From NCBI GenBank assembly GCA_903944135.1, contig CAJAQL010000006.1, positions 9,425 to 73,424 on the forward strand: a DNA stretch of 64,000 nucleotides, read 5' to 3'. The position numbers and the translations under genes are program-made. The notes under the pieces are model-generated. The model had not been told where the DNA came from and ran no database searches. It saw only the letters and a program-made list of their open reading frames with translations. Shown here in pieces: positions 24,862 through 61,285 of this stretch (positions are counted from its first letter, which is position 1; each line of letters starts with the position of its first letter). This DNA comes from an uncultured Parcubacteria group bacterium (GTDB lineage Bacteria > Patescibacteriota > Minisyncoccia > UBA6257 > 2-01-FULL-56-20).

Positions 24862-26541
24862 CTAGGGTAGATTATGCGCCTGTGAAAATCGCGCCAAATA
24901 GTCTTGTATATTAAGAACGTCCGGAAAACGCGCAACAAGGACTTTCAATTCAGCTTCCGTTTGACTAAGATTGGCCGTTACGCTTTCCGGCTGGACGAAC
25001 GGATCAACGTAAGTGGTCCCATATTTTTGTATCAAGCTTGCGTTTGCTGGCGTGTTTTTCATCATAATTACGGAATGGCCATCCCAATAGATCATTCGAA
25101 AATTGTCATGATAAAGAGCCGTAAAGAGAGGATTGTCGTCGATAACGATAAATTGTTCCCAGTAGGGCAATATTACATAATTGATTTTATATTTTTGATC
25201 GATAATCTGTTGCCAGTTGCTGTTGAGGTCTATCACCGAAAGATAATCCTGCACGGGCTGACCCCTGAAAACCTCCGAGCGGCCGTCGATCGCGACTTTT
25301 TCTTGCGGCCATAACGCCCAGATCAAATAGCCTCCATCGCTATAATCGTTAAAGAGAGGCCCCTGGATGCCATTGTGCTTAATGAAATTGACGGCATCGA
25401 CGGGAAGCGTGATGTTGCTGACGGGGCTGTCCGGCAACATCATGATTGCTTTTACGAGGAAAAGAACGCCAAATATGGATAATAAAATCGGGAGCAGTTT
25501 TGGAGAAAGTTTCTCCACTGTTCCGCTGAACGCGGACGAGATTGCTACGGCAAGCGGCACAATAACTACGAACGGCCAAAAGATGATATAACGGGCGGAA
25601 AGAAATGGAAGAATAGAAACGCCAAGAAATAGACCGAGCGTTCCGAGGTCGCGGCTTTCCTTTCTGACGCAAAAATACCAAACAAGAAGCGCGCCAAAAA
25701 CGATGAACTCCACCAAGAAGGCCTGTACGATCGGACTACTTAATGCCGAAAGCGCGGGGCGATATTGGGTTATGTTGAAAATTTTCGCAAGCTCCCGTAC
25801 ATAGAAAGCGTAAAGAAAAATGCGGTAGGTATTTGGATTCAGGAAAGACAATCCGAGAGACAATAACGTCGCTCCGGCAAGATAGTTCGTTTGCTTGATG
25901 GTCAGGATGGTTCTTCCGAAATAACGGGGAAATTTCAGTTGAATCTTCAATGCGATCGTATAAAAAATCAAAACAACTAAACCAAGAAGAAAACTTGCAT
26001 GTATATTCGCCCAAAGCCATACGATAAAAAGAGTCGGGACGAGATAAAGAACGCGAGGATGTTCCCGATATTTTTCCAGGCAATAGATCAAAAGCACAAG
26101 GAGAAAGGTTGCAATGACTTCGGGGCGAGTCTGCCAGAAAGAGATGCTCGAATAGGCTATGATAAAACCTACGAGAAGCGTGACATAAACATTCGCCCCT
26201 TTTTTGATTGCTAACCGCACGATAAAGAAATAGCTCAGGGATGCAAGCAGGGCAGCGAATCCGATCAATGCCCAAAATCCGAAACTCGAACTAACGAGAT
26301 AGAAAACAATCTCCGCAAGCCATTCATGCGTGACCCACATCGCTCCTGGTGCGGTATATGAAAAAATATCCGCAGTGGGCACGTGTCCGCTTTCAATAAT
26401 TACCTGGCCGGTTTTGATGTGATAAAACGTATCCGAATCCTTTATTTGGTGAAATGAAAAAAGGAAGATAAGCAATAAAAAAAGAACGAAGAGCATTTTT
26501 CCCCACCATGTTGTTTTAAAGGAAACAAAAGATGGTTTCAT
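24862..26541 (-). CDS. Large polytopic membrane protein (possible GT-C-type glycosyltransferase; function uncertain)
   Basis: 559 aa with about 12-14 predicted TM helices and a first periplasmic loop carrying D/E residues (DSDTFYH…HEWLAE). Confidence 0.45.
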   Translation of the reverse strand: MKPSFVSFKTTWWGKMLFVLFLLLIFLFSFHQIKDSDTFYHIKTGQVIIESGHVPTADIFSYTAPGAMWVTHEWLAEIVFYLVSSSFGFWALIGFAALLASLSYFFIVRLAIKKGANVYVTLLVGFIIAYSSISFWQTRPEVIATFLLVLLIYCLEKYREHPRVLYLVPTLFIVWLWANIHASFLLGLVVLIFYTIALKIQLKFPRYFGRTILTIKQTNYLAGATLLSLGLSFLNPNTYRIFLYAFYVRELAKIFNITQYRPALSALSSPIVQAFLVEFIVFGALLVWYFCVRKESRDLGTLGLFLGVSILPFLSARYIIFWPFVVIVPLAVAISSAFSGTVEKLSPKLLPILLSIFGVLFLVKAIMMLPDSPVSNITLPVDAVNFIKHNGIQGPLFNDYSDGGYLIWALWPQEKVAIDGRSEVFRGQPVQDYLSVIDLNSNWQQIIDQKYKINYVILPYWEQFIVIDDNPLFTALYHDNFRMIYWDGHSVIMMKNTPANASLIQKYGTTYVDPFVQPESVTANLSQTEAELKVLVARFPDVLNIQDYLARFSQAHNLP

Positions 26542-26771
26542 CTTAAATTAAGCTATATAAATGATGCACATTACCGTTATGAGTACGAGAAAGACATATA
26601 AATCCGAGGTCTGCTACAGTTAAAATTATGCCATATTTTAATATAATTTCAAAACTTAAATACCCAAAAATGCGTGAATTCTTACGCATTGTCCATAAAC
26701 GGTCATTACAGTACAAAACGCCATTCGATGTCATCGCAAAAGCACCCAAAAATGGCAATTTGAACACAATG

Positions 26772-26842
26772 CTGGGAGGCTTGGAATCGGACCAAGATTG
26801 AGGGCTTCAAAGGCCCCTGTCCTACCATTAGACGACCTCCCA
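26772..26842 (-). tRNA. tRNA-Gln (anticodon UUG), slightly non-canonical T-loop
   Basis: Minus-strand sequence TGGGAGG-TC-GTC-TAATGGTAG-GAC-A-GGGGC-CTTTGAA-GCCCT-CAAT-CTTGG-TCCGATT-CCAAG-CCTCCCA-G. It has a U1-A72 pair and G73 (Gln identity elements), GG in the D-loop and anticodon loop cuUUGaa. The T-loop has C at position 55. Confidence 0.6.
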
Positions 26843-26916
26843 AAATGAAATGCGCTGATTGCTTGCTTCTTTGGTATAATAAATAAGAAGTCGTAAAAAA
26901 ACAAATTAAAAATCAT

Positions 26917-26945
26917 GGATTCCCGCTTTCGCGGGAACGACAGAT
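26917..26945. repeat. GC-rich palindromic repeat unit
   Basis: ttcccgctttcgcgggaa followed by cgacag. Confidence 0.7.
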
Positions 26946-26954
26946 AATAAAACT

Positions 26955-27560
26955 ATGAAATACGAATTACCGCAGTTGCCCTATGCGTACGATGCGCTCG
27001 AGCCGTACATTGACGCAAAGACGATGGAAGTCCACCACACAAAGCATCATCAAACATATACGAACAATCTGAATGCCGCCCTTGAGAAGCATCCGGAGGT
27101 CGCAGATGTGCCACTCGAGAAAATGCTCGCTGATCTCACGATCGTGCCGGAGGATATCCGGTCGGCGATCCGCAATTCCGGCGGGGGATACTGGAACCAT
27201 GATTTCTTCTGGAAAGTGATGGGTCCGCAAGCCGGAGGCGAACCGCAGGGAAAAATTGCCGGAGCAATCACGGCATCCTTCGGAGGATTCGCGCCATTTA
27301 AAGAAGCGTTCACGAAAGCGGCAGCTGGCGTGTTCGGTTCGGGGTGGGCATGGCTCGTGGCGGGGGAAGACGGAAAGTTGTCCGTGATCTCAACGCCGAA
27401 TCAGGACAGTCCGCTTGCGCTGGGCAAGAGACCGATCCTTACGCTCGATGTCTGGGAACATGCCTACTATCTCAAGTACCAGAACAGAAGGCCCGAATAC
27501 ATCGACGCATGGTGGAATGTGGTGAACTGGAATGCCGTCGAAAATAATTTTGAAAAATAA
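26955..27560 (+). CDS. sodA: Fe/Mn superoxide dismutase
   Basis: [18 protein letters not shown] and WNVVNW motifs. Confidence 0.9.
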
Positions 27561-51202: not shown

Positions 51203-51305
51203 GTGTCATTCCGAATTTCTCTGTCGTTCCCGCAAAAGCGGGAACCCAGAAAAAACTGGATCCCCGCATGCGCGGGGACGACAGAAACAAAGCTCGGAAT
51301 GACAA
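51203..51305. repeat. Cluster of GC-rich palindromic repeat units upstream of lexA
   Basis: gtcattccgaa…cgttcccgcaaaagcgggaac…ggatccccgcatgcgcggggacgacag…ctcggaatgaca. Confidence 0.7.
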
Positions 51306-51932
51306 ATGACACATAAATCTATGACCAACATAACAAAACGCCAGAAAGAAACGCTCGATTTCATCAAGGCCTATCAGGCGAAAAATGGGTATGCGCCTTC
51401 GCTTGAAGAGATCAAGACCTATCTCAAGCTCTCCTCGGTTTCCACGGCGCATCATCATGTGAAAGCGCTCGAGGAGCAAGGTTATCTTCAGAAAGACGAT
51501 AACCAGCCGCGCGGGATCAGCGTGAACACCGCGGAGCAGATGGTACAGATCCCGCTCAAGGGTCTCATTGCAGCTGGAACTCCGATCATGGCGCTCGAAC
51601 AGCAGGAGATCATCGCCGTGCCGCGTAACCGCCTGCCCCGGGAAGTGAAGAATATCTACGCCCTGAAGGTCGTCGGTCAAAGTATGATCGACGAGAACAT
51701 CAATGACGGCGACATCGTGCTCGTACGTCATCAGGCGACCGCAAATAACGGCGAGAAGGTGGTCGCGCTCATCGACAACAATGACGTGACGCTCAAAACG
51801 TTCTTCGCCGAAAACGGCCAGATCCGTCTCCAGCCCGCCAACAAGAAGATGCAGCCCATCATCGTCCGCAAAGGCAATACTGGTTTCGCGATCCAGGGCA
51901 TCGTCCTCGATGTGATCAAAAATTTCGCATAA
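51306..51932 (+). CDS. lexA: LexA repressor (S24 peptidase)
   Basis: N-terminal wHTH, Ala-Gly cleavage site (LIAAGTP), Ser in VVGQSM and Lys in VTLKTF. Confidence 0.85.
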   Translation: MTHKSMTNITKRQKETLDFIKAYQAKNGYAPSLEEIKTYLKLSSVSTAHHHVKALEEQGYLQKDDNQPRGISVNTAEQMVQIPLKGLIAAGTPIMALEQQEIIAVPRNRLPREVKNIYALKVVGQSMIDENINDGDIVLVRHQATANNGEKVVALIDNNDVTLKTFFAENGQIRLQPANKKMQPIIVRKGNTGFAIQGIVLDVIKNFA

Positions 51933-53239: not shown

Positions 53240-53842
53240 TTATATGGATTTCAATATCCTCAGAATGGCCTTCTGATATTCCGGATACCTGATATCATGG
53301 GGTGCGTCCTTCACCACAACCAGCTTCGAACGTTTCGCCAAGCTTGCCGTCTCTTCGCACCGTATTCTGAGCGAAGGGAATTTTTTCCCTTCGAATCCTC
53401 CATAAAATACAACCGAGGGGATCTGCAGATTTTGAGCCGCTTCCCTGCCGCTGCGTTGCTTGATTTCAGCCAGTCTCCTCTTGCCGACGAACCGGTCGAT
53501 CCAAGATTTCATTTCGGGAGACTTCATCATCGGAAGATCCTCCTTGAAATCGGGACTCAGCGAACAAAGATAGACTTTTTTAGGATGAAGATCGTTCGCC
53601 GACAAGAGGGCGATCACCGCACCATAAGAAAAACCAAGCAGATAATTTTCTTCCGATCTGTTTTTCTTGTAAAAACCCTTGAACTCGGCGACATAATCGT
53701 TCATCGTCCGATAATTCCATGTGATAGGCGCGATCGATACCCTAAAACCTTTTTGCTCCAAAAATCTTCGAAGCCAAAAAAACGAACGGCTCGTAGATGA
53801 CATCTTGAAACCGGGGACGATAAAGAAAGTTTTACGAGTCAT
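53240..53842 (-). CDS. Putative alpha/beta-hydrolase fold protein
   Basis: GFSYGA fits the GxSxG nucleophile elbow; otherwise unassigned. Confidence 0.45.
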   Translation of the reverse strand: MTRKTFFIVPGFKMSSTSRSFFWLRRFLEQKGFRVSIAPITWNYRTMNDYVAEFKGFYKKNRSEENYLLGFSYGAVIALLSANDLHPKKVYLCSLSPDFKEDLPMMKSPEMKSWIDRFVGKRRLAEIKQRSGREAAQNLQIPSVVFYGGFEGKKFPSLRIRCEETASLAKRSKLVVVKDAPHDIRYPEYQKAILRILKSI

Positions 53843-54161
53843 GGATTCCGAAGTATACCTATATGAACATTGAAAATCTCAAGTGGAGATGGTTGAGGAA
53901 AGTTGGAACCAGCTGGAAAGCTTCATTTTGAAATGGGGTGAGGTGATAAAAGATCGAGAAATGACGAGAATTAGCTAGAAATCCTCCTCCGCTAATACAC
54001 ATGATTAAGATTGAACCTAGTAAGAAGGAATGCAGGATAAGGCGGCCTCATAAAAAGAAATCTATCGCCAAAGCCTCACTATTAGAGAAATTAAGGGGTT
54101 GATCGCTTTAAGCTCTTAGAGATCAGCTAGTAATTCCGTACGTCCCCCTGAATCAAAAACA

Positions 54162-54635
54162 ATGTTTCAAAACACATACGAACAACGCAAGGGAGCTATC
54201 CGAGCCCGCATACATATCAACGATTACATGCGTCGCTATGCGTGGGAACTATTCAAGGGTAATCGACGACCCGTGATGAGAACGCTCTCGGACGCAGACT
54301 ATTATAAAAAGCTTTTCAGCGACCCTCTACACTCACCCATACGCTCAATGCTCGGCATCCCTTCCGGTGAGCTTTATAAATACTGCCAAGAGCTTGATTA
54401 TATCTCCTCAAACCTCGGTAGGGGTTTTATCTTCTATTTCATCTGCACTTGGTGCACTCGGAGGGTGAAATGCCTCTATGTTGACGAGAGTCTTGAGGCA
54501 ATGCTCTGCCGAAAATGTATCAAGCTTCCTTATCGACAGTCATCACGACCCGAACGGTACGCTTCGCGTTATATTCGGAGGCATCCAGAGCTGGTAAAAC
54601 GCTTAATTGATTCTGGCGAAATTCCTATTTATTGA
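54162..54635 (+). CDS. Hypothetical basic protein with a zinc-ribbon-like Cys cluster (island cargo)
   Basis: CTWCTRRVKC…CRKC; low GC. Confidence 0.5.
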   Translation: MFQNTYEQRKGAIRARIHINDYMRRYAWELFKGNRRPVMRTLSDADYYKKLFSDPLHSPIRSMLGIPSGELYKYCQELDYISSNLGRGFIFYFICTWCTRRVKCLYVDESLEAMLCRKCIKLPYRQSSRPERYASRYIRRHPELVKRLIDSGEIPIY

Positions 54636-54711
54636 ATACCTGCGCTCGGGTAGATGCATTTCAAGGGAATTATATACTTTGTAATATCGAACCTGTATAA
54701 TAAAAATATAA

Positions 54712-55560
54712 ATGGAGAAAGTTGAAATTGAAATAGAGTACGATGGTAAAGACGTAGAAGACGGAACTATGTCCTTAGAGGATATGATTCCAGCTCTACA
54801 AGGGCTGTCCAGCGCATATGGGAAGATTGCGATACTTCAAAATCCTGAGGCGCGTCATAATTTGCGAGTTACGGGAGTTGGAAAAGGAACATTCCATATT
54901 CTTATAGAAGCATGGAATCTAGCCGTTCAGAATAAGGATGGAATAATGCTTGCGGCGGCGATGACGGGAATAGCAGAGCCTTCCTTTAAGGTTGTGAAAG
55001 CGATAATTGGCGTAGCTACGACGACAAAGCACGTACAAAATAAGCCTTATACGGAAAAGATAAACGGAGTACAGCAGAGTATTACGATAACCAACTGTGA
55101 AAATGTCACCCTAGAAGTACCGTTGGAAATCTATCAGATTTATAAAGACGGCATGATAAAACAAGACTTGAATAAAATTACTGGATCGCTCGCGGAAGGG
55201 AAAATTGATAGTACCACTCTTAAAGCGAAATCAGAAAAAGAAAGCATAGAGGAAAAAATAACCTTGTCGGAGAAAAAGTTTTTTGAGGTAGAGGAAATCG
55301 TTACTACGGTTACAAAGGAAATGTGGCTTACGGGAGTTTTGAACTCTCTCGCAAAATCTACTAACCGAGGCAGCTTTTATCTCAACGACGGAACACGAGT
55401 ATCTTATCATTTGGGAGGCGATAATCCAGAAAAATTGTATCAGTTCTTTATTTATAAAGGGATAGTGCGAGTGAAATGTACGGCTTCCTTGGACGAGAAT
55501 CTAAAGCCAATACAAATCGAGATTTTGGAGATAAATCAGGTTGAACAACCACTTTTGTAG
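54712..55560 (+). CDS. Hypothetical 282-aa protein (island cargo)
   Basis: Co-directional 76 nt downstream of the previous gene; no recognised motif. Confidence 0.5.
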   Translation: MEKVEIEIEYDGKDVEDGTMSLEDMIPALQGLSSAYGKIAILQNPEARHNLRVTGVGKGTFHILIEAWNLAVQNKDGIMLAAAMTGIAEPSFKVVKAIIGVATTTKHVQNKPYTEKINGVQQSITITNCENVTLEVPLEIYQIYKDGMIKQDLNKITGSLAEGKIDSTTLKAKSEKESIEEKITLSEKKFFEVEEIVTTVTKEMWLTGVLNSLAKSTNRGSFYLNDGTRVSYHLGGDNPEKLYQFFIYKGIVRVKCTASLDENLKPIQIEILEINQVEQPLL

Positions 55561-55593
55561 TTATCCGCATTTCGTATTCACTTGCATGATAAA

Positions 55594-56967
55594 TTAATTC
55601 GTTGATTGAGCGGCCAAGGTATAGGCTTGGATATATCCAATCCCCGCCGTGAGTCCAGATTCTCCGAGCGTCGGGATACCTAAAATACATGGCCCCTTGT
55701 TCAAGATAGCAACACCACCAGAATTGCCATGGTCGATTGCTGCGTTGGTTTTATAGATTGGGCCGGGAAGAATCCCGCTTATGATTCCTTGGGTTACGGT
55801 TTCTGAAATACCGAGAAGATTGCCGGAGCTAGGATAGCCAAATATGGTAACAGTGTCTCCAACATTTACATTAGAACATCCTGAATGTGGAAATTCTGGC
55901 AGATTGTTAATGGCGGGAATAGGACTCAATGTAACTGACGACGGAAGCGGCGTATCGAGAGCAAAAATAGCAGCGTCCTCGTATGTATTTGGGTTATAAT
56001 GAGAATCGATTAAAGCTAACTTATAGTCTCCATAGCCTTCGTTATAACCAAAGTTTGGAGGCTCAGGATATACGGCGTAACAAGCAGGCAATGGCCCACC
56101 TTGGCTTGCCAATTCTGCTTCTGCAAGAACGTGAAAATTCGTTTCAATATCTATATTAGTTGAAGCAATGTTCTTGGTATTCGAACGAAATGAAACACCC
56201 GATCCACTGACCACAACGCTTGAATTAGATGCGTAGCAATTTATTTCAACGATAGTTGGCTCGATTTGATTAATAAGAGATGGCGTAAGGCCCTCGCTTG
56301 CGTTCAGTGAAGTATTTTGAGGCTGCTGAACGGTTGGCGACGAGTTCTGTTGTGATTGCGGTGCGCTATTGTTGCTGGACGTTGTAAAACTTAATGAAGA
56401 TAAAAATGTGTTCTCTAACTGCTGATCTTCTTGTCCTTCCCAATAAAAATAATCAAGCATGTATAAATCATTTCCCTTCAATACATCCATTCCTGATTGA
56501 TATAGAATCGGCTGTGATTGATCAACCTGATTGGAGCTAATATATTTTATGGCCGGGTAGCCCTTAAAGGTTGTTAAACTCGAAGAAACAACTTTGGAAC
56601 CGCCGGAAGTCCCGGTGTATTGAAGCTCGGCTTCAAGATCGGCATCGGCGGACGCGGCTGAACCAGCGAATGCGGATGCAATGTGAGTCGCCTCAAGAGA
56701 GGGATTATTTATACCGTTACCAATACTCCCCCAAGAATAATTGTCATCAGATACGCTATTCCCCTTTGTAAGCTCTTGAGAGGCTGAGGAGTAAGTCGGC
56801 TGATCGGGGAAATAAACGGAGAAGCTGCCATGCTCCAAATTATAACCTTGACCTCCGTTAGCGCTACTGGAAGAATTTTCGGAGATAATAACAACGCCCC
56901 AAATAATAAATGCTACTATTCCTAGACCTATCCAAACTCCTTTGTACGATTCTTTTGCTTCCGGCAT
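55594..56967 (-). CDS. Membrane-anchored trypsin-like serine protease (S1/S1C-like)
   Basis: N-terminal TM, S/N/Q-rich linker, catalytic-triad context NFHVLAEAE (His), AIFALD (Asp), and TNAAIDHGNSGGVAIL (GNSGG Ser motif, as in HtrA TDAAINPGNSGGPL). Confidence 0.7.
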   Translation of the reverse strand: MPEAKESYKGVWIGLGIVAFIIWGVVIISENSSSSANGGQGYNLEHGSFSVYFPDQPTYSSASQELTKGNSVSDDNYSWGSIGNGINNPSLEATHIASAFAGSAASADADLEAELQYTGTSGGSKVVSSSLTTFKGYPAIKYISSNQVDQSQPILYQSGMDVLKGNDLYMLDYFYWEGQEDQQLENTFLSSLSFTTSSNNSAPQSQQNSSPTVQQPQNTSLNASEGLTPSLINQIEPTIVEINCYASNSSVVVSGSGVSFRSNTKNIASTNIDIETNFHVLAEAELASQGGPLPACYAVYPEPPNFGYNEGYGDYKLALIDSHYNPNTYEDAAIFALDTPLPSSVTLSPIPAINNLPEFPHSGCSNVNVGDTVTIFGYPSSGNLLGISETVTQGIISGILPGPIYKTNAAIDHGNSGGVAILNKGPCILGIPTLGESGLTAGIGYIQAYTLAAQSTN

Positions 56968-56981
56968 GGGTGATGTGTGGG

Positions 56982-57704
56982 CTATTCGCTTTGAATATCA
57001 TTCGCCTCTTTTTCTGCGGAAGCGACGCACTCATTCGCCTTCTCTTGCGCTTGGAGACCTTGTACTCCACCCGCTTCGCTTAGATTGGAAGAAGAAGAAC
57101 ATTCTTCATTTTGTGATTGTTCATATTCAATCTGGGATTCGATGCTCGCACCAACAGAGCGGGCTTGATCAATCTTCTGTTGCGCCTCTGCATTTTGCAA
57201 AGTGATTTGAGCAGCTTGCAATAAGGGATTGTAAAGCGCACTCAATAGATTTTGCTCTCCCGTATATTCACTCATACCAGTTCCCGCCCCAACTGTTGCT
57301 CGGAGTTGAGCATAGCGCGTTTGCAGACTATATAGATTTTGTGTTGAGTTATTTATCGCCTCACTGTCAAAGCTGAGATAGCTCTCGTTTGCGAATTGCG
57401 TTTGCTGATCCAAAATAGTAGGCGTTGGACATCCTGCCGGAACTAATGATAATTGGCTCGCGTTGATAATTTCTGAGGGGCAGTTGGAGGGCGTAGAAAC
57501 GATTGTGTTTGGTTGGGATGTGGATTGAGACGTTGAGCTCGATGAATTAACTGAGGGTGAAGTATTTGATTGTAGCGCTTGAGTAGCCATACTGATCGCT
57601 TGGGTGGCAAGGGTCTGTGCCTGCGCACTATTGGCCGTACTGGGGTTTGAAAGCAGCGTCAAAACAAGTTGGAGAAGAACAACTATTGAAGATAAATTTG
57701 CCAT
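56982..57704 (-). CDS. Secreted low-complexity S/T/Q/N-rich protein
   Basis: Signal peptide MANLSSIVVLLQLVLTLLSNPSTANSA, then an S/T/Q-rich region and a Q-rich coiled C-terminus. The start is at the Met at 57704. Confidence 0.55.
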   Translation of the reverse strand: MANLSSIVVLLQLVLTLLSNPSTANSAQAQTLATQAISMATQALQSNTSPSVNSSSSTSQSTSQPNTIVSTPSNCPSEIINASQLSLVPAGCPTPTILDQQTQFANESYLSFDSEAINNSTQNLYSLQTRYAQLRATVGAGTGMSEYTGEQNLLSALYNPLLQAAQITLQNAEAQQKIDQARSVGASIESQIEYEQSQNEECSSSSNLSEAGGVQGLQAQEKANECVASAEKEANDIQSE

Positions 57705-57949
57705 GATATTTTTATTAAAATTTTTATTCCATGGCGTGGAGATCGGCCTCAATAACACAAAACTCCACGCTGTGCCTGAGCCTTGCGGCTCCATAGCCCT
57801 TTCGAGCCATGACCCTAGACGAGTGGCCAAACGTGGAGTTTGGTATCGTCTAGGGTGTTTCGCGCCATGCCCTGATTGCTCAAAGATTTAGGCGACTTAT
57901 ATTAAGTTGTGCTTTCAATGTAACATCGTTCCGACGACTTGTTAAGTCG

Positions 57950-58789
57950 ATGGAAAAATGTCGAAAAATGTCGGATAATAAAGTAACTACGGTGGACTAT
58001 AAAAAAATCGGCCTGCGATATAGAGAACGTTTAGCAACGCTTCGCGCTACGCCAGATTTTGATGAATTTTTGATCGAAACGATAAGACTCGATATGGAGT
58101 TGGAGCAATCGAGGAGAACCGACGGGTATAATTTCGAACCAGCAATTAAAATTCATATCGAGAAAATGCGCCTCATTGAAGGCCTGATTAAAAAATTCCA
58201 TTTGCCGCCACCTTTCCGCAACATCCTTGAAAACCCTTTTTATCCAGAAGCTAATGGCCTATACTTTGCACCTTATCGAATCGATCCGCAGGTTATCCCC
58301 GTTGCCAAAGGTGAATTTGAGCATCCACGCATTTCTGGCGAACCCCTCGATTCGTTAACGGTCACGATTTACGGCAGGCTTTCTACGGAAGATTGGGCTT
58401 CTCTAAAAGAACGTATTGAACGTTTGCAGGACGTAGCTTTCGATACCGAGGCGATTCATCCATTCCGACGTAGTAAAAATATCGATGAGAAGGTTAGAAT
58501 TGTTAAAGAAATGGCTACTCGAAAACCAAGGAGAGTCCGTAAAGAAAATGTCGAGCATAATTATATCGACATTCTTGAGAAATCAATGGGAAAATTATCC
58601 ATCTCAAAAAAGCGAGAGTTTTCTAAACTACATCCTTGGAGCGTGCGAAAGGTTATCGAGAATGGCAGGAGCAGTGCAGATGTGGCCTCACAACTCGGTC
58701 GGCGTAGCAAATCAAAAGATAAGGGCGCTGCTGTCCGAAAGACGCTTTCGCGCTTCAAGAATGCAAAAAAGCGGACAAAAGCACCATAG
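57950..58789 (+). CDS. Hypothetical 279-aa protein with a basic C-terminus (island cargo)
   Basis: No motif recognised; Lys/Arg-rich tail. Confidence 0.5.
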   Translation: MEKCRKMSDNKVTTVDYKKIGLRYRERLATLRATPDFDEFLIETIRLDMELEQSRRTDGYNFEPAIKIHIEKMRLIEGLIKKFHLPPPFRNILENPFYPEANGLYFAPYRIDPQVIPVAKGEFEHPRISGEPLDSLTVTIYGRLSTEDWASLKERIERLQDVAFDTEAIHPFRRSKNIDEKVRIVKEMATRKPRRVRKENVEHNYIDILEKSMGKLSISKKREFSKLHPWSVRKVIENGRSSADVASQLGRRSKSKDKGAAVRKTLSRFKNAKKRTKAP

Positions 58790-58934
58790 CGTTTATTTTT
58801 AAATAAACGTCACAATAGAAATTAATGTCGGGTTTATGATGGCCGTAATGAAATGATTACGGTCATTTTCATTGCACGGTGGCAAAGAAATCGTCATTAG
58901 CCCTCCACCGTGCTAGTGACGATTTCTTTATCTC

Positions 58935-59093
58935 ATGATCGGCACCGAACCCACTATGCTTTCTCTTGGACAATTAAGAGCTATTGATACAGAAAACGAA
59001 CTCTCGGATGAGGAGCTTCTTGAGCTACGCGACGCACTCGACCCTATTCTCGAAAGAATCCTTAATCGCTATTTCAATAGCATATTAGAATAG
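58935..59093 (+). CDS. Candidate 52-aa acidic helical micro-protein
   Basis: MIGTEPTMLSLGQLRAIDTENELSDEELLELRDALDPILERILNRYFNSILE; below the ORF-track cutoff. Confidence 0.3.
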   Translation: MIGTEPTMLSLGQLRAIDTENELSDEELLELRDALDPILERILNRYFNSILE

Positions 59094-59133
59094 GCCTCTT
59101 GCTATGGTATAACTAAGCGGTTAGAATAAAGAC

Positions 59134-59286
59134 ATGGACAAAGAGACGATCAGTAAGGTTATGCGGGAAATGGGGCGGCGCGGAGGGCTTGCGTCCGTAA
59201 ATGCTCGTAAGAAAAGCGGGAAGATGAAGGAGTGGTCTCAAAACGCTATAAAAGCTCGCCGCCGAAAAAAGAATAAAAAAGCATGA
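59134..59286 (+). CDS. Candidate 50-aa basic micro-protein translationally coupled to the recombinase
   Basis: MDKETISKVMREMGRRGGLASVNARKKSGKMKEWSQNAIKARRRKKNKKA. Its TGA stop overlaps the recombinase ATG (ATGA at 59283-59286). Confidence 0.4.
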   Translation: MDKETISKVMREMGRRGGLASVNARKKSGKMKEWSQNAIKARRRKKNKKA

Positions 59287-60863
59287 GCGAACTCAACGCC
59301 ATAATTTACTGCCGCGTCTCGTCGGAACGACAAAAGAACGAGGGTCACGGTCTCGACGGCCAAGAGCAACGTTGCCGTCTCTATTGCGGGCAAAAGCAAT
59401 ACAAAGTTGAGCGGGTCTTTAAGGACAGCTTCACAGGAGGCGGAGATTTTATGGAACGTCCGGCGATGGGAGACCTACTCGCCTACCTCGACAAGCATCC
59501 GCATCGGGATAATTACGTCGTCGTTTTTGATGACCTCAAGCGATTTGCCCGCGACACCGTTTTCCATTTGAAGCTCCGCCGCGAATTTAAGGCGCGGGGC
59601 GTTAAAGTGGAATGCCTTAATTACAAATTCGATGAATCCGAGGAAGGCGAGTTCATCGAAACCGTTTTAGCCGCACAGGGCGAGCTTGAGCGGAAGCAGA
59701 ATCGCCGCCAAGTAATTCAGAAGCAGAAAGCGCGTCTTGAGGCGGGCTATTGGCCTTTTTGCCCGCCGCCAGGCTATCGTCAGCCCAAAACAATGGCCCA
59801 TGGGAAGCTACTTACACCACACGAGCCAGAAGCGACGATGATAAGAATGGCCCTCGAAGGATTTGCGACAGATCGCTTCGAGACACAGGCGGATATGGCT
59901 CACTATTTGGGAGAACAAAATTTCGTCGGCAAAAGCAGAGTTCCCTTCCAGTTGGCGAATCGCTTATTGGCACGAGTTTGGATATATGCCGGATTTATCC
60001 AATATGAACCATGGGAAGTAATGAGGCGAGAAGGTCATCATCAGCCCCTCATTGACTTAGCGACCTATCACAAGATTTTGCGAAAACTCGAAGGTCGTAG
60101 CCCCATAAGGACAAGGGCGGATATGCGTGAGGATTTTCCTTTGCGCCACACCCGTATCGTCTGTAGTAACGGCCATCCTCTTACAGCCTCGTACACGACC
60201 AAAAAGAAGGGCTATAGGAAGCCTTATTATCGTTGTTCTAATAGGACTTGCCCCGAACATACCAAAAGCATCCCTGCTGAGCTTATATTGGCGCAATTCA
60301 AGGCTATGTTGCAGGAAATTCGCCCAAAGCCCCTTATTCTTAAAATCAGCGAAGCGATGCTCTATGAAAAATGGGAACGGCGCGTGGCCGAACGAGCCAA
60401 TAACGAAAAAAGGGAGGTTGGTGAAATTATAGGGATTCAAACGGAGATACGCGACCTCTCAAAGCTTGCACGAAAGGCAAGTAGTGAGCGCGTCCGGCGA
60501 GAGTATGAAAAGCAGATTGAGGAGCTTGCGGCGAAAGAGGAAAAATTAACAGAGAAAAACGATCCGGTGAAGAAGCCGAAAATCGAGTTTAGAACCGCTC
60601 TACAAATGGTGTTTGATTATCTAAAAGACCCATATACCAAGTGGGTTGAGGGCGATTTGAGCGAAAAAAATCTAGTGCTAAACCTCGTTTTTGAGGGTCT
60701 CGTTTTCTATGACCGAGGATTTGGATTTAGAACCGCTCCTTTGTGCCTTCCCTTAAGGGTTTTTGAGCATTTTACTACCTCTAAATTACAGGGTGTGGAG
60801 ACGGGCGGAATCGAACCGCCGTCTAGTAATGAAGCCAATGAGCCGTCTACGGGTGTAGTTTAA
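59283..60863 (+). CDS. Large serine recombinase (resolvase catalytic domain, recombinase domain, zinc ribbon)
   Basis: IYCRVSSERQ places the catalytic Ser in the resolvase N-domain. Long recombinase domain, Cys-containing zinc-ribbon segment (CSNGH…CSNRTCPEH) and coiled coil; 526 aa. Confidence 0.85.
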   Translation: MSELNAIIYCRVSSERQKNEGHGLDGQEQRCRLYCGQKQYKVERVFKDSFTGGGDFMERPAMGDLLAYLDKHPHRDNYVVVFDDLKRFARDTVFHLKLRREFKARGVKVECLNYKFDESEEGEFIETVLAAQGELERKQNRRQVIQKQKARLEAGYWPFCPPPGYRQPKTMAHGKLLTPHEPEATMIRMALEGFATDRFETQADMAHYLGEQNFVGKSRVPFQLANRLLARVWIYAGFIQYEPWEVMRREGHHQPLIDLATYHKILRKLEGRSPIRTRADMREDFPLRHTRIVCSNGHPLTASYTTKKKGYRKPYYRCSNRTCPEHTKSIPAELILAQFKAMLQEIRPKPLILKISEAMLYEKWERRVAERANNEKREVGEIIGIQTEIRDLSKLARKASSERVRREYEKQIEELAAKEEKLTEKNDPVKKPKIEFRTALQMVFDYLKDPYTKWVEGDLSEKNLVLNLVFEGLVFYDRGFGFRTAPLCLPLRVFEHFTTSKLQGVETGGIEPPSSNEANEPSTGVV

Positions 60864-61122
60864 CGAAAGTTAGACAGGTTTTGATCCGTAAGTGTCGCGC
60901 CAACCACAGGATCGTCGAATGGCGTTAAGTTCCCTTATATAAGACCGGCGATGGACCCAAGGAACCCGGATCCGCCGATCCCGACGTCGGTCAGCCGATT
61001 AGGCAAACGCGAACGCCGGAAGCTGCAACTTTTGTGTTGGCAGTTTAAATGATGCGACAAGTACGTCGTCGCCCACGACCCGCAAGCTCATGGAACATCA
61101 CTATCGAAGCCAGTGCGTCCCC
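60796..61122 (-). ncRNA. ssrA: tmRNA (ssrA)
   Basis: Minus-strand 5' GGGGACGCACUGGCUUCGAUAG… matches the tmRNA 5' consensus. Acceptor stem with G3·U70, T-arm GGCGG-UUCGAUU-CCGCC and 3' end CGUCUCCA (identical to B. subtilis ssrA). The tag reading frame is …CAG CUU CCG GCG UUC GCG UUU GCC UAA, giving …QLPAFAFA-stop; CCA is not encoded. Confidence 0.8.
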
Positions 61123-61213
61123 AAATTGCGCTTTCGCGCCGAATATAGAATAACATAAAAATACAAGAAAAGCAATATTCCTGTTGTTCCGTTGCAAAAC
61201 AGAATCTAAAAAG

Positions 61214-61285
61214 CCTGGATCCCCGCTTTCGCGGGGATGACAGAGGGAAAATAATAAAGCAAAAATTATTTTCCCTCTGTCACTT
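61214..61285. repeat. GC-rich palindromic repeat unit plus inverted repeat
   Basis: ggatccccgctttcgcggggatgacagagggaaaataa…ttattttccctctgtcac. Confidence 0.7.

Follow-up and report, generated by a model that had tools for sequence, protein, structure and literature searches.

A zinc-ribbon backbone gene and a stand-alone mobile cargo gene are probably chance neighbours on a serine-recombinase island at the tmRNA gene of a Parcubacteria group bacterium

In a 64,000-nucleotide (nt) stretch of contig CAJAQL010000006.1 from an uncultured Parcubacteria group bacterium (GCA_903944135.1; henceforth the window), two open reading frames, ORF1 and ORF2, follow each other on an integrative island at the transfer-messenger RNA (tmRNA) gene. 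An earlier note, made from the letters of this DNA, had read them as one module in which a small sensor or regulator is paired with a larger effector, as in anti-phage or addiction systems. We find that ORF1 opens the conserved backbone of the island as its first sizeable gene, and that ORF2 is cargo: it stands alone, moves horizontally and belongs to the PDC-S42/LAPAL family. The pair is therefore best read as a backbone factor and a self-contained cargo gene that became neighbours by accident of island structure, a reading that we hold to be probable. That the two genes lie on the same strand, 76 nt apart, is borne out by their coordinates, and both are real genes, since ORF1 has relatives at 64-76% identity and the homologue search for ORF2 recovered 57 relatives.

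The division between the two genes is seen on comparison with L001 (GCA_021827685.1), the locus of the closest ORF1 relative, where the same island occupies the same tmRNA site. L001 shares with the window ORF1 (76% identity), a gene of 279 amino acids (aa; 71%), two small genes, the recombinase (87%), the tmRNA gene and the right flank. In the interval from ORF1 to the 279-aa gene, two unrelated minus-strand genes replace ORF2, a trypsin-like protease gene and a second, minus-strand 282-aa gene, which together form the cargo in the window. By blastn, DNA similarity covers 53883-53960 and 54117-54639 and resumes only at 57858. Since it ends at 54639, the backbone stops four bases past the ORF1 stop codon, inside the 76-nt gap, and ORF2 lies wholly within a variable slot of 3.2 kb. 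The inheritance of ORF1 and ORF2 as one unit is thus contradicted, as the boundary between backbone and cargo falls between them.

We also searched the two families against each other's loci, 787 kb in total, with positive controls that gave 51 and 38 hits. A profile of the ORF2 family had no hit in 50 ORF1-family loci (354 kb), and a profile of the ORF1 family had none in 33 ORF2-family loci (433 kb). Likewise, no ORF2 relative was found on any contig of the five ORF1 relatives retrieved with a word index. The proposed pairing of a sensor or regulator with an effector does not survive this result, for the earlier note had itself made co-localisation of the homologues the test, and they were never co-localised. 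Its further statement that the pair has the lowest guanine-plus-cytosine (GC) content of the window was right for ORF2 (40.2%) and wrong for ORF1 (46.4%), which lies above the 43.2% of its stretch at 53843-59282 (whole window, 49.1%). The minimum-GC stretch of 1399 nt, the length of the pair, begins at 54658 and is thus centred on ORF2, and the 1-kb bin at 26001-27000 is just as GC-poor (40.8%). Tight spacing, a shared strand and low GC on an island are therefore insufficient here to define a defence module.

The relatives of ORF2 behave as a gene that travels on its own. Homologues occur in Minisyncoccia and Parcubacteria, which, like the flanks of the island, indicates a member of the candidate phyla radiation as the source of the window, and a genome scan that yielded 31 ORF2-family loci extended the range to Patescibacteria, Saccharibacteria, Acidobacteriota, Chloroflexota, Ignavibacteria, Zixibacteria, Bacteroidota and Gammaproteobacteria. 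Upstream and downstream neighbours vary from locus to locus, which marks ORF2 as a stand-alone gene. Among 148 neighbours within 4 kb of ORF2 relatives, transposases, integrases and restriction-modification methylases were the commonest. An IS1595 transposase lies upstream in eight loci, mostly overlapping the ORF2-family gene by a few bases; elsewhere the upstream gene encodes a 1253-aa reverse transcriptase, FtsK, a restriction-modification methylase, a terminase, a tyrosine integrase or a radical-SAM enzyme. Defence genes accompany the relatives in L087, L010 and L026, and many others stand beside mobility genes; in L087 the genes ahead of a 59%-identical relative encode AbiEii and a 1025-aa type ISP/IIG restriction enzyme. 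In Bifidobacterium prophage Bbif-1, another relative belongs to the lysogeny region, at a distance of 1.4 kb from the integrase. Viral data yielded one ORF2 relative in 2.9 million viral contigs and one in 50,697 phage records.

The simplest carrier was found in a Vicinamibacterales genome, in which an IS1595-family transposase and an ORF2-family passenger make up a 2.1-kb element (L018 6949-9057; also L019, L030, L031 and L021). This element is bounded by perfect terminal inverted repeats of 27 bp and an 8-bp target duplication, AAAAAAAT. At least four copies, 99.9-100% identical and some of them interrupted by other insertions, are present in the one genome, and a copy at 88% identity occurs in a Bryobacterales genome. 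The insertion sequence (IS) that carries the ORF2-family gene is apparently active.

That the pair sits on a mobile island, as the earlier note had supposed, was confirmed. The island extends from about 53.88 to 60.86 kb (roughly 7 kb) and ends on the right in a large serine recombinase gene, the final 69 nt of which overlap, in antisense, the 3' end of the tmRNA gene. It is this overlap that identifies the region as an element integrated at the tmRNA gene. On the left, the leftmost block shared with L001 is the probable edge of the shared backbone, as judged from the alignment. Neither a search for direct and inverted repeats nor a short-word blastn comparison of the tmRNA 3' end with the island's left part gave anything above chance, and no empty, island-free site was recovered among the relatives. 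With serine recombinases the absence of attachment (att) repeats is usual, their sites having only a few bases in common. When the recombinase C-terminus was used as a tblastn query, no remnant turned up in the window upstream of ORF1, and an Rfam scan of 53600-54800 gave no match. In relatives, too, the recombinase gene overlaps its target, namely tRNA-Asp in L005 and the 3' part of a split comM gene in L041; the element appears to provide the end of its target gene. The features of the island are collected in Table 1.

Table 1. Features of the gene pair and the island (positions in the window; a full stop marks a feature without strand)
Feature	Position	Strand	Details
Leftmost block shared with L001	53883-53960	+	79% identity, blastn of window against L001
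29-aa micro-ORF (MVEESWNQLESFILKWGEVIKDREMTRIS)	53889-53978	+	mostly covered by the block at 53883-53960
45-nt block upstream of ORF1	54117-54161	+	kept in L001, L005 and L006
ORF1	54162-54635	+	157 aa, from the ORF list
ORF1 zinc-ribbon core, residues 95-119	54444-54518	+	C95-x2-C98-x17-C116-x2-C119, preceded by SNLG-x-G-x-x-FYF
Variable cargo slot	54640-57857	.	no DNA similarity to L001
ORF2	54712-55560	+	282 aa, from the ORF list
ORF2 N-terminal family domain, residues 1-200	54712-55311	+	PDC-S42, LAPAL and phrog_3243 matches
ORF2 C-terminal OB fold, residues 204-276	55321-55539	+	predicted; strand-strand-strand-helix-strand-strand
Trypsin-like serine protease, 457 aa, cargo	55594-56967	-	Pfam Trypsin_2, E = 2.2e-7
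282-aa protein, Ser/Thr/Gln-rich, cargo	56982-57830	-	weak relative only, at the same position in L001
279-aa backbone gene	57950-58789	+	71% identical in L001
Basic 50-aa backbone gene	59134-59286	+	87-89% identical in L001 over 36-39 aligned residues
Large serine recombinase, 526 aa	59283-60863	+	Pfam Resolvase, E = 1.4e-24, plus Zn_ribbon_recom
tmRNA gene, integration target, right island end	60795-61122	-	ARAGORN; L001 arranged alike

The ORF1 protein proved to belong to a sizeable family. The word-index search had returned only the five relatives mentioned above, and a full profile search brought the number to at least 179 representative relatives (69 at E <= 1e-10), nearly all of them of 100-230 aa. 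The protein is basic (isoelectric point 9.64; 29 lysine and arginine against 16 aspartate and glutamate residues) and has cysteines at positions 75, 95, 98, 104, 116 and 119, in agreement with the CTWC…C…CRKC cluster and the basic character noticed earlier. An alignment of 75 family members shows SNLG-x-G-x-x-FYF-x-C-x2-C ... L-Y ... C-R-x-C ... Y with little or no variation. Every sequence has C95 and C98, and at least 90% have C116 and C119; C75 and C104 are not conserved. The earlier suggestion of a nucleic-acid-binding zinc ribbon thus holds as far as the four-cysteine signature is concerned, which is kept across the family, and the binding of nucleic acid would follow from the sequence as a plausible property. 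ORF1 had no match in Pfam, PADLOC, PHROGs or NCBIfam; the 75 aligned relatives gave scattered weak hits only against Pfam, PHROGs and NCBIfam, and a profile search of PDB sequences gave chance-level hits only. Phage records, plasmids and viral contigs yielded no ORF1 relative. The predicted structure of ORF1, built from five sequences, is weak, with a predicted local distance difference test (pLDDT) score of 61.

Just upstream of the start codon, the block at 54117-54161 is kept with ORF1 in L001, L005 and L006 though the surrounding elements differ, which suggests that ORF1 moves with its own control region. No consensus promoter scored within this block, which by its conservation is a candidate promoter or operator. 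One subfamily of ORF1 relatives (L039, L040, L042, L044 and eight further loci) is preceded, at a gap of about 25 nt, by a gene for a partner of about 188 aa, 40-59% identical between loci and without a family match; ORF1 of the window has no such partner.

The recurrent companion of the ORF1 family is the large serine recombinase, not ORF2. The 50 ORF1-family loci were searched with a recombinase profile built from those same loci, and at least 21 contexts had a co-directional recombinase gene downstream. It follows directly in 14 of these, at 47-650 nt (L005, L041, L043, L051, L054-L061, L073 and L081), and lies at 3-7.4 kb in the window, L001, L040, L044, L065, L069 and L070. The linked recombinases are diverse, sharing 22-39% identity, and are directed at different targets (tmRNA, tRNA-Asp and split comM). 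Two layouts recur. One consists of a DUF5659 gene, a gene of about 57 aa, a gene of about 440 aa, the ORF1-family gene, an optional HTH_17 gene and the recombinase. The other begins with a remnant of a recombinase C-terminus and a gene of about 188 aa, continues with the ORF1-family gene, placed at the end remote from the recombinase, then with cargo, and closes with a recombination module that ends in an HTH_17 gene and the recombinase. In L042 the cargo behind the ORF1-family gene encodes a Panacea-domain protein and an Mrr-type nuclease, so that this position seems to be where elements keep accessory genes.

Two further observations concern these elements. Two recombinase elements stand in tandem in L065 (5462-16223). 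Just left of the element, upstream of the gene of about 188 aa, L040, L042, L066 and L084 have a short ORF that resembles a recombinase C-terminus; it represents either what is left of an earlier tandem copy or a displaced target end.

These contexts, taken with the zinc-ribbon signature, suggest that ORF1 may be a nucleic-acid-binding accessory or regulatory factor of serine-recombinase elements, one that could act on the module for recombination or maintenance, or else on the conserved block upstream of its own gene. We favour this role over that of the cognate excision (directionality) factor, which is less likely. It is conceivable, and for now doubtful, that the family constitutes an undescribed class of zinc-ribbon accessory factors for serine-recombinase elements of candidate phyla radiation (CPR)-like genomes, which would govern recombination, or the expression of the recombination module, whichever recombinase is present, and that the slot immediately behind the gene would be preferred by defence-type cargo such as ORF2.

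For ORF2, the earlier statement that it has no recognisable motif was mistaken, since it is matched by models in three collections. It matches PADLOC PDC-S42 at E = 9.6e-20 (69.3 bits), residues 1-206 aligning to profile positions 1-214 of 302, and the same model matched all 54 aligned relatives (E down to 6e-23). Against NCBIfam NF053583, the LAPAL motif-containing putative phage structural protein, it scores 75.5 bits at a cut-off of 60, the alignment spanning positions 2-212 of 292, and against PHROGs phrog_3243 it reaches E = 4.5e-18. Where the LAPAL motif would stand, ORF2 reads M-I-P-A-L (residues 25-29), the consensus of the relatives being VPAL. ORF2 had no PDB sequence match and no plasmid match, and full-text literature searches for PDC-S42 and LAPAL found nothing relevant.

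The predicted structure of ORF2 (pLDDT 88) ends in a five-stranded barrel with a helix between strands 3 and 4, that is, an OB fold. This domain is the most conserved part of ORF2 within its close subfamily, and the conservation of K215, R229, Y232 and K265 in it is suggestive of nucleic-acid binding. In the N-terminal domain, H49, R52, H107, D152, K155 and E181 are conserved. When the model was compared by Foldseek with models of viral proteins, the top full-length matches had E = 1e-7 to 1e-9 and a TM-score of about 0.35. They were two uncharacterised phage proteins and a DUF6575 protein, the last with E = 1e-8, a probability of 1.0 and a TM-score of only about 0.34. A DUF6575 domain occurs in one of the PD defence systems of E. 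coli that were selected experimentally (Vassallo et al. 2022, PMC9519451). PDC-S42, for its part, is one of 145 PDC candidates found embedded in BREX, DISARM or type I restriction-modification systems (bioRxiv 10.1101/2024.01.29.577857).

We propose that ORF2 may act alone, as a candidate phage-exclusion or abortive-infection-type factor. Its OB fold, if the model is right, would recognise a nucleic acid such as single-stranded DNA or RNA, leaving the effector part to the N-terminal domain. The anti-phage character that the earlier note gave to the pair is thus lost for the two-gene unit and persists for ORF2, the family of which is by itself a single-gene phage-defence candidate in PADLOC.

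Several points weigh against the reading of the pair as a backbone factor and an unrelated defence-type cargo gene. Without att repeats or an empty site, the ends of the island rest on the comparison with one relative. The 76-nt gap contains no terminator and no consensus promoter by a scan that is uninformative on this point, and ORF1 and ORF2 may be co-transcribed. About one-third of the longer ORF1-family loci (L039, L042, L066 and others) show no recombinase in the available DNA. As to ORF2, the family models reach no further than about residue 207, it has no known defence gene, of restriction-modification or another type, beside it in the window, and the PDC systems are described by their authors as untested (bioRxiv 10.1101/2024.01.29.577857).

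Four other explanations compete with this reading. The pair could still be a true defence or addiction module of two genes, confined to this lineage, in which ORF1 serves ORF2 as regulator, sensor or antitoxin; the common strand, the narrow gap free of a terminator or clear promoter, and the recurrence of the arrangement in a second sample, L046, all speak for it. However, ORF1 of L046 is identical, so that L046 represents essentially the same population; the two families fail to co-occur in 83 loci, the boundary between backbone and cargo separates the two genes, the 76%-identical relative of ORF1 has different neighbours, and ORF2 relatives move alone, for example in an IS with only a transposase for company. 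This leaves the module very unlikely. ORF1 might, on the other hand, be the recombination directionality factor of the island's large serine recombinase, as would befit a family encoded directly upstream of a serine recombinase, on the same element, in 14 contexts, the known directionality factors of these recombinases being small and structurally very diverse (PMC12286644). Yet between the window and L005, ORF1 is 64% identical while the recombinases share 22%, ORF1 and recombinase do not co-vary among diverged pairs (r = -0.005), and several elements already have an excisionase-type HTH_17 gene between the two. We think such a role quite unlikely. An ORF1-recombinase signal from a mirror-tree comparison was dropped, because its overall significance was due to near-identical pairs and was gone among diverged ones.

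The main alternative to a stand-alone defence role for ORF2 is that it helps the elements that carry it, as a single-stranded-DNA-binding helper for transposition, replication or establishment. The predicted OB fold would suit this, as would the relative that overlaps an IS1595 transposase gene by 4 nt within the inverted repeats and those near integrases and a terminase. But the carriers work by unrelated chemistries (DDE transposase, serine recombinase and tyrosine integrase), some copies lie beside restriction-modification or AbiE genes without an adjacent mobility gene, and it was its embedding in defence systems that brought the family to notice (bioRxiv 10.1101/2024.01.29.577857), all of which makes the helper role unlikely, if a serious competitor. 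The remaining explanation takes the NCBIfam name at its word and makes ORF2 a phage structural protein. The NF053583 score does exceed its cut-off and one relative does follow a terminase gene; the island, however, has no other virion genes, relatives reside in a 2.1-kb IS element, in chromosomal islands and in the lysogeny rather than the structural module of Bbif-1, and their near absence from the viral contigs and phage records (one in each set) is hard to square with such a role, which we regard as extremely improbable. We thus retain ORF1 as a backbone factor of the island and ORF2 as a stand-alone cargo gene.

Around the pair, a few smaller features deserve mention. The micro-ORF to the left of ORF1 is kept in L001 and L003 with mostly conservative changes, within a spacer that is otherwise divergent, and may be a small backbone gene or a marker of the island's left end. 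A further candidate for a recombination cofactor is the very basic 50-aa backbone protein (…GRRGGLASVNARKKSGK…), whose gene runs 4 nt into the start of the recombinase gene. A repeat of 36 nt, with 86% identity between its copies, occurs at 51250-51285, upstream of lexA, and at 61209-61244, beside the tmRNA gene. It contains the GC-rich palindrome GGATCCCCGC...GCGGGGA and looks like a dispersed palindromic repeat element. The LexA homologue is encoded at 51306-51932 on the plus strand, 2.2 kb left of ORF1, and LexA domains appear twice among the neighbours of ORF2 relatives, which may reflect synteny or coincidence.

The immediate consequence of this analysis is the removal of a false lead, that of a two-gene defence module. 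In its place stands an unannotated zinc-ribbon family of little-studied bacteria with a strong link to large serine recombinases, enzymes whose accessory factors are difficult to identify and of value in genome engineering. To the candidate family of ORF2 we add a predicted OB-fold C-terminus, carriage as a passenger of an apparently active IS, and contexts that contradict the name 'phage structural protein'. The link of the ORF1 family to recombinases and the carriage of the ORF2 family by an insertion sequence are the points most worth following up, both of them modest leads and neither very surprising.

How do the two proteins compare with known systems? ORF1 resembles the accessory factors of serine recombinases (SprB, gp3, HTH_17 Xis-type proteins and XisH/XisI of the XisF element) in being small and encoded on an integrative element together with a large serine recombinase, the family's genes mostly lying immediately ahead of it, and differs from them in having neither sequence nor fold similarity to them nor co-variation with the recombinase. 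With the IS1595-family insertion sequences that carry passenger genes, ORF2 shares a relative that is the sole passenger of a complete, multi-copy element, whereas ORF2 of the window is not in an IS and has no flanking transposase or inverted repeats. The DUF6575 proteins provide the best viral structural match; by sequence, however, none of the 54 relatives matched Pfam DUF6575 and none of the PADLOC PD systems matched, which makes the likeness a lead only. From NF053583, ORF2 departs in its motif, MIPAL rather than LAPAL, and the contexts of its relatives oppose a structural role. In comparison with PDC-S42, its C-terminal OB domain falls outside the match and no restriction-modification or BREX system is near it in the window, but like PDC-S42 it is a single gene without a fixed partner, and some of its relatives stand beside restriction-modification and AbiE genes.

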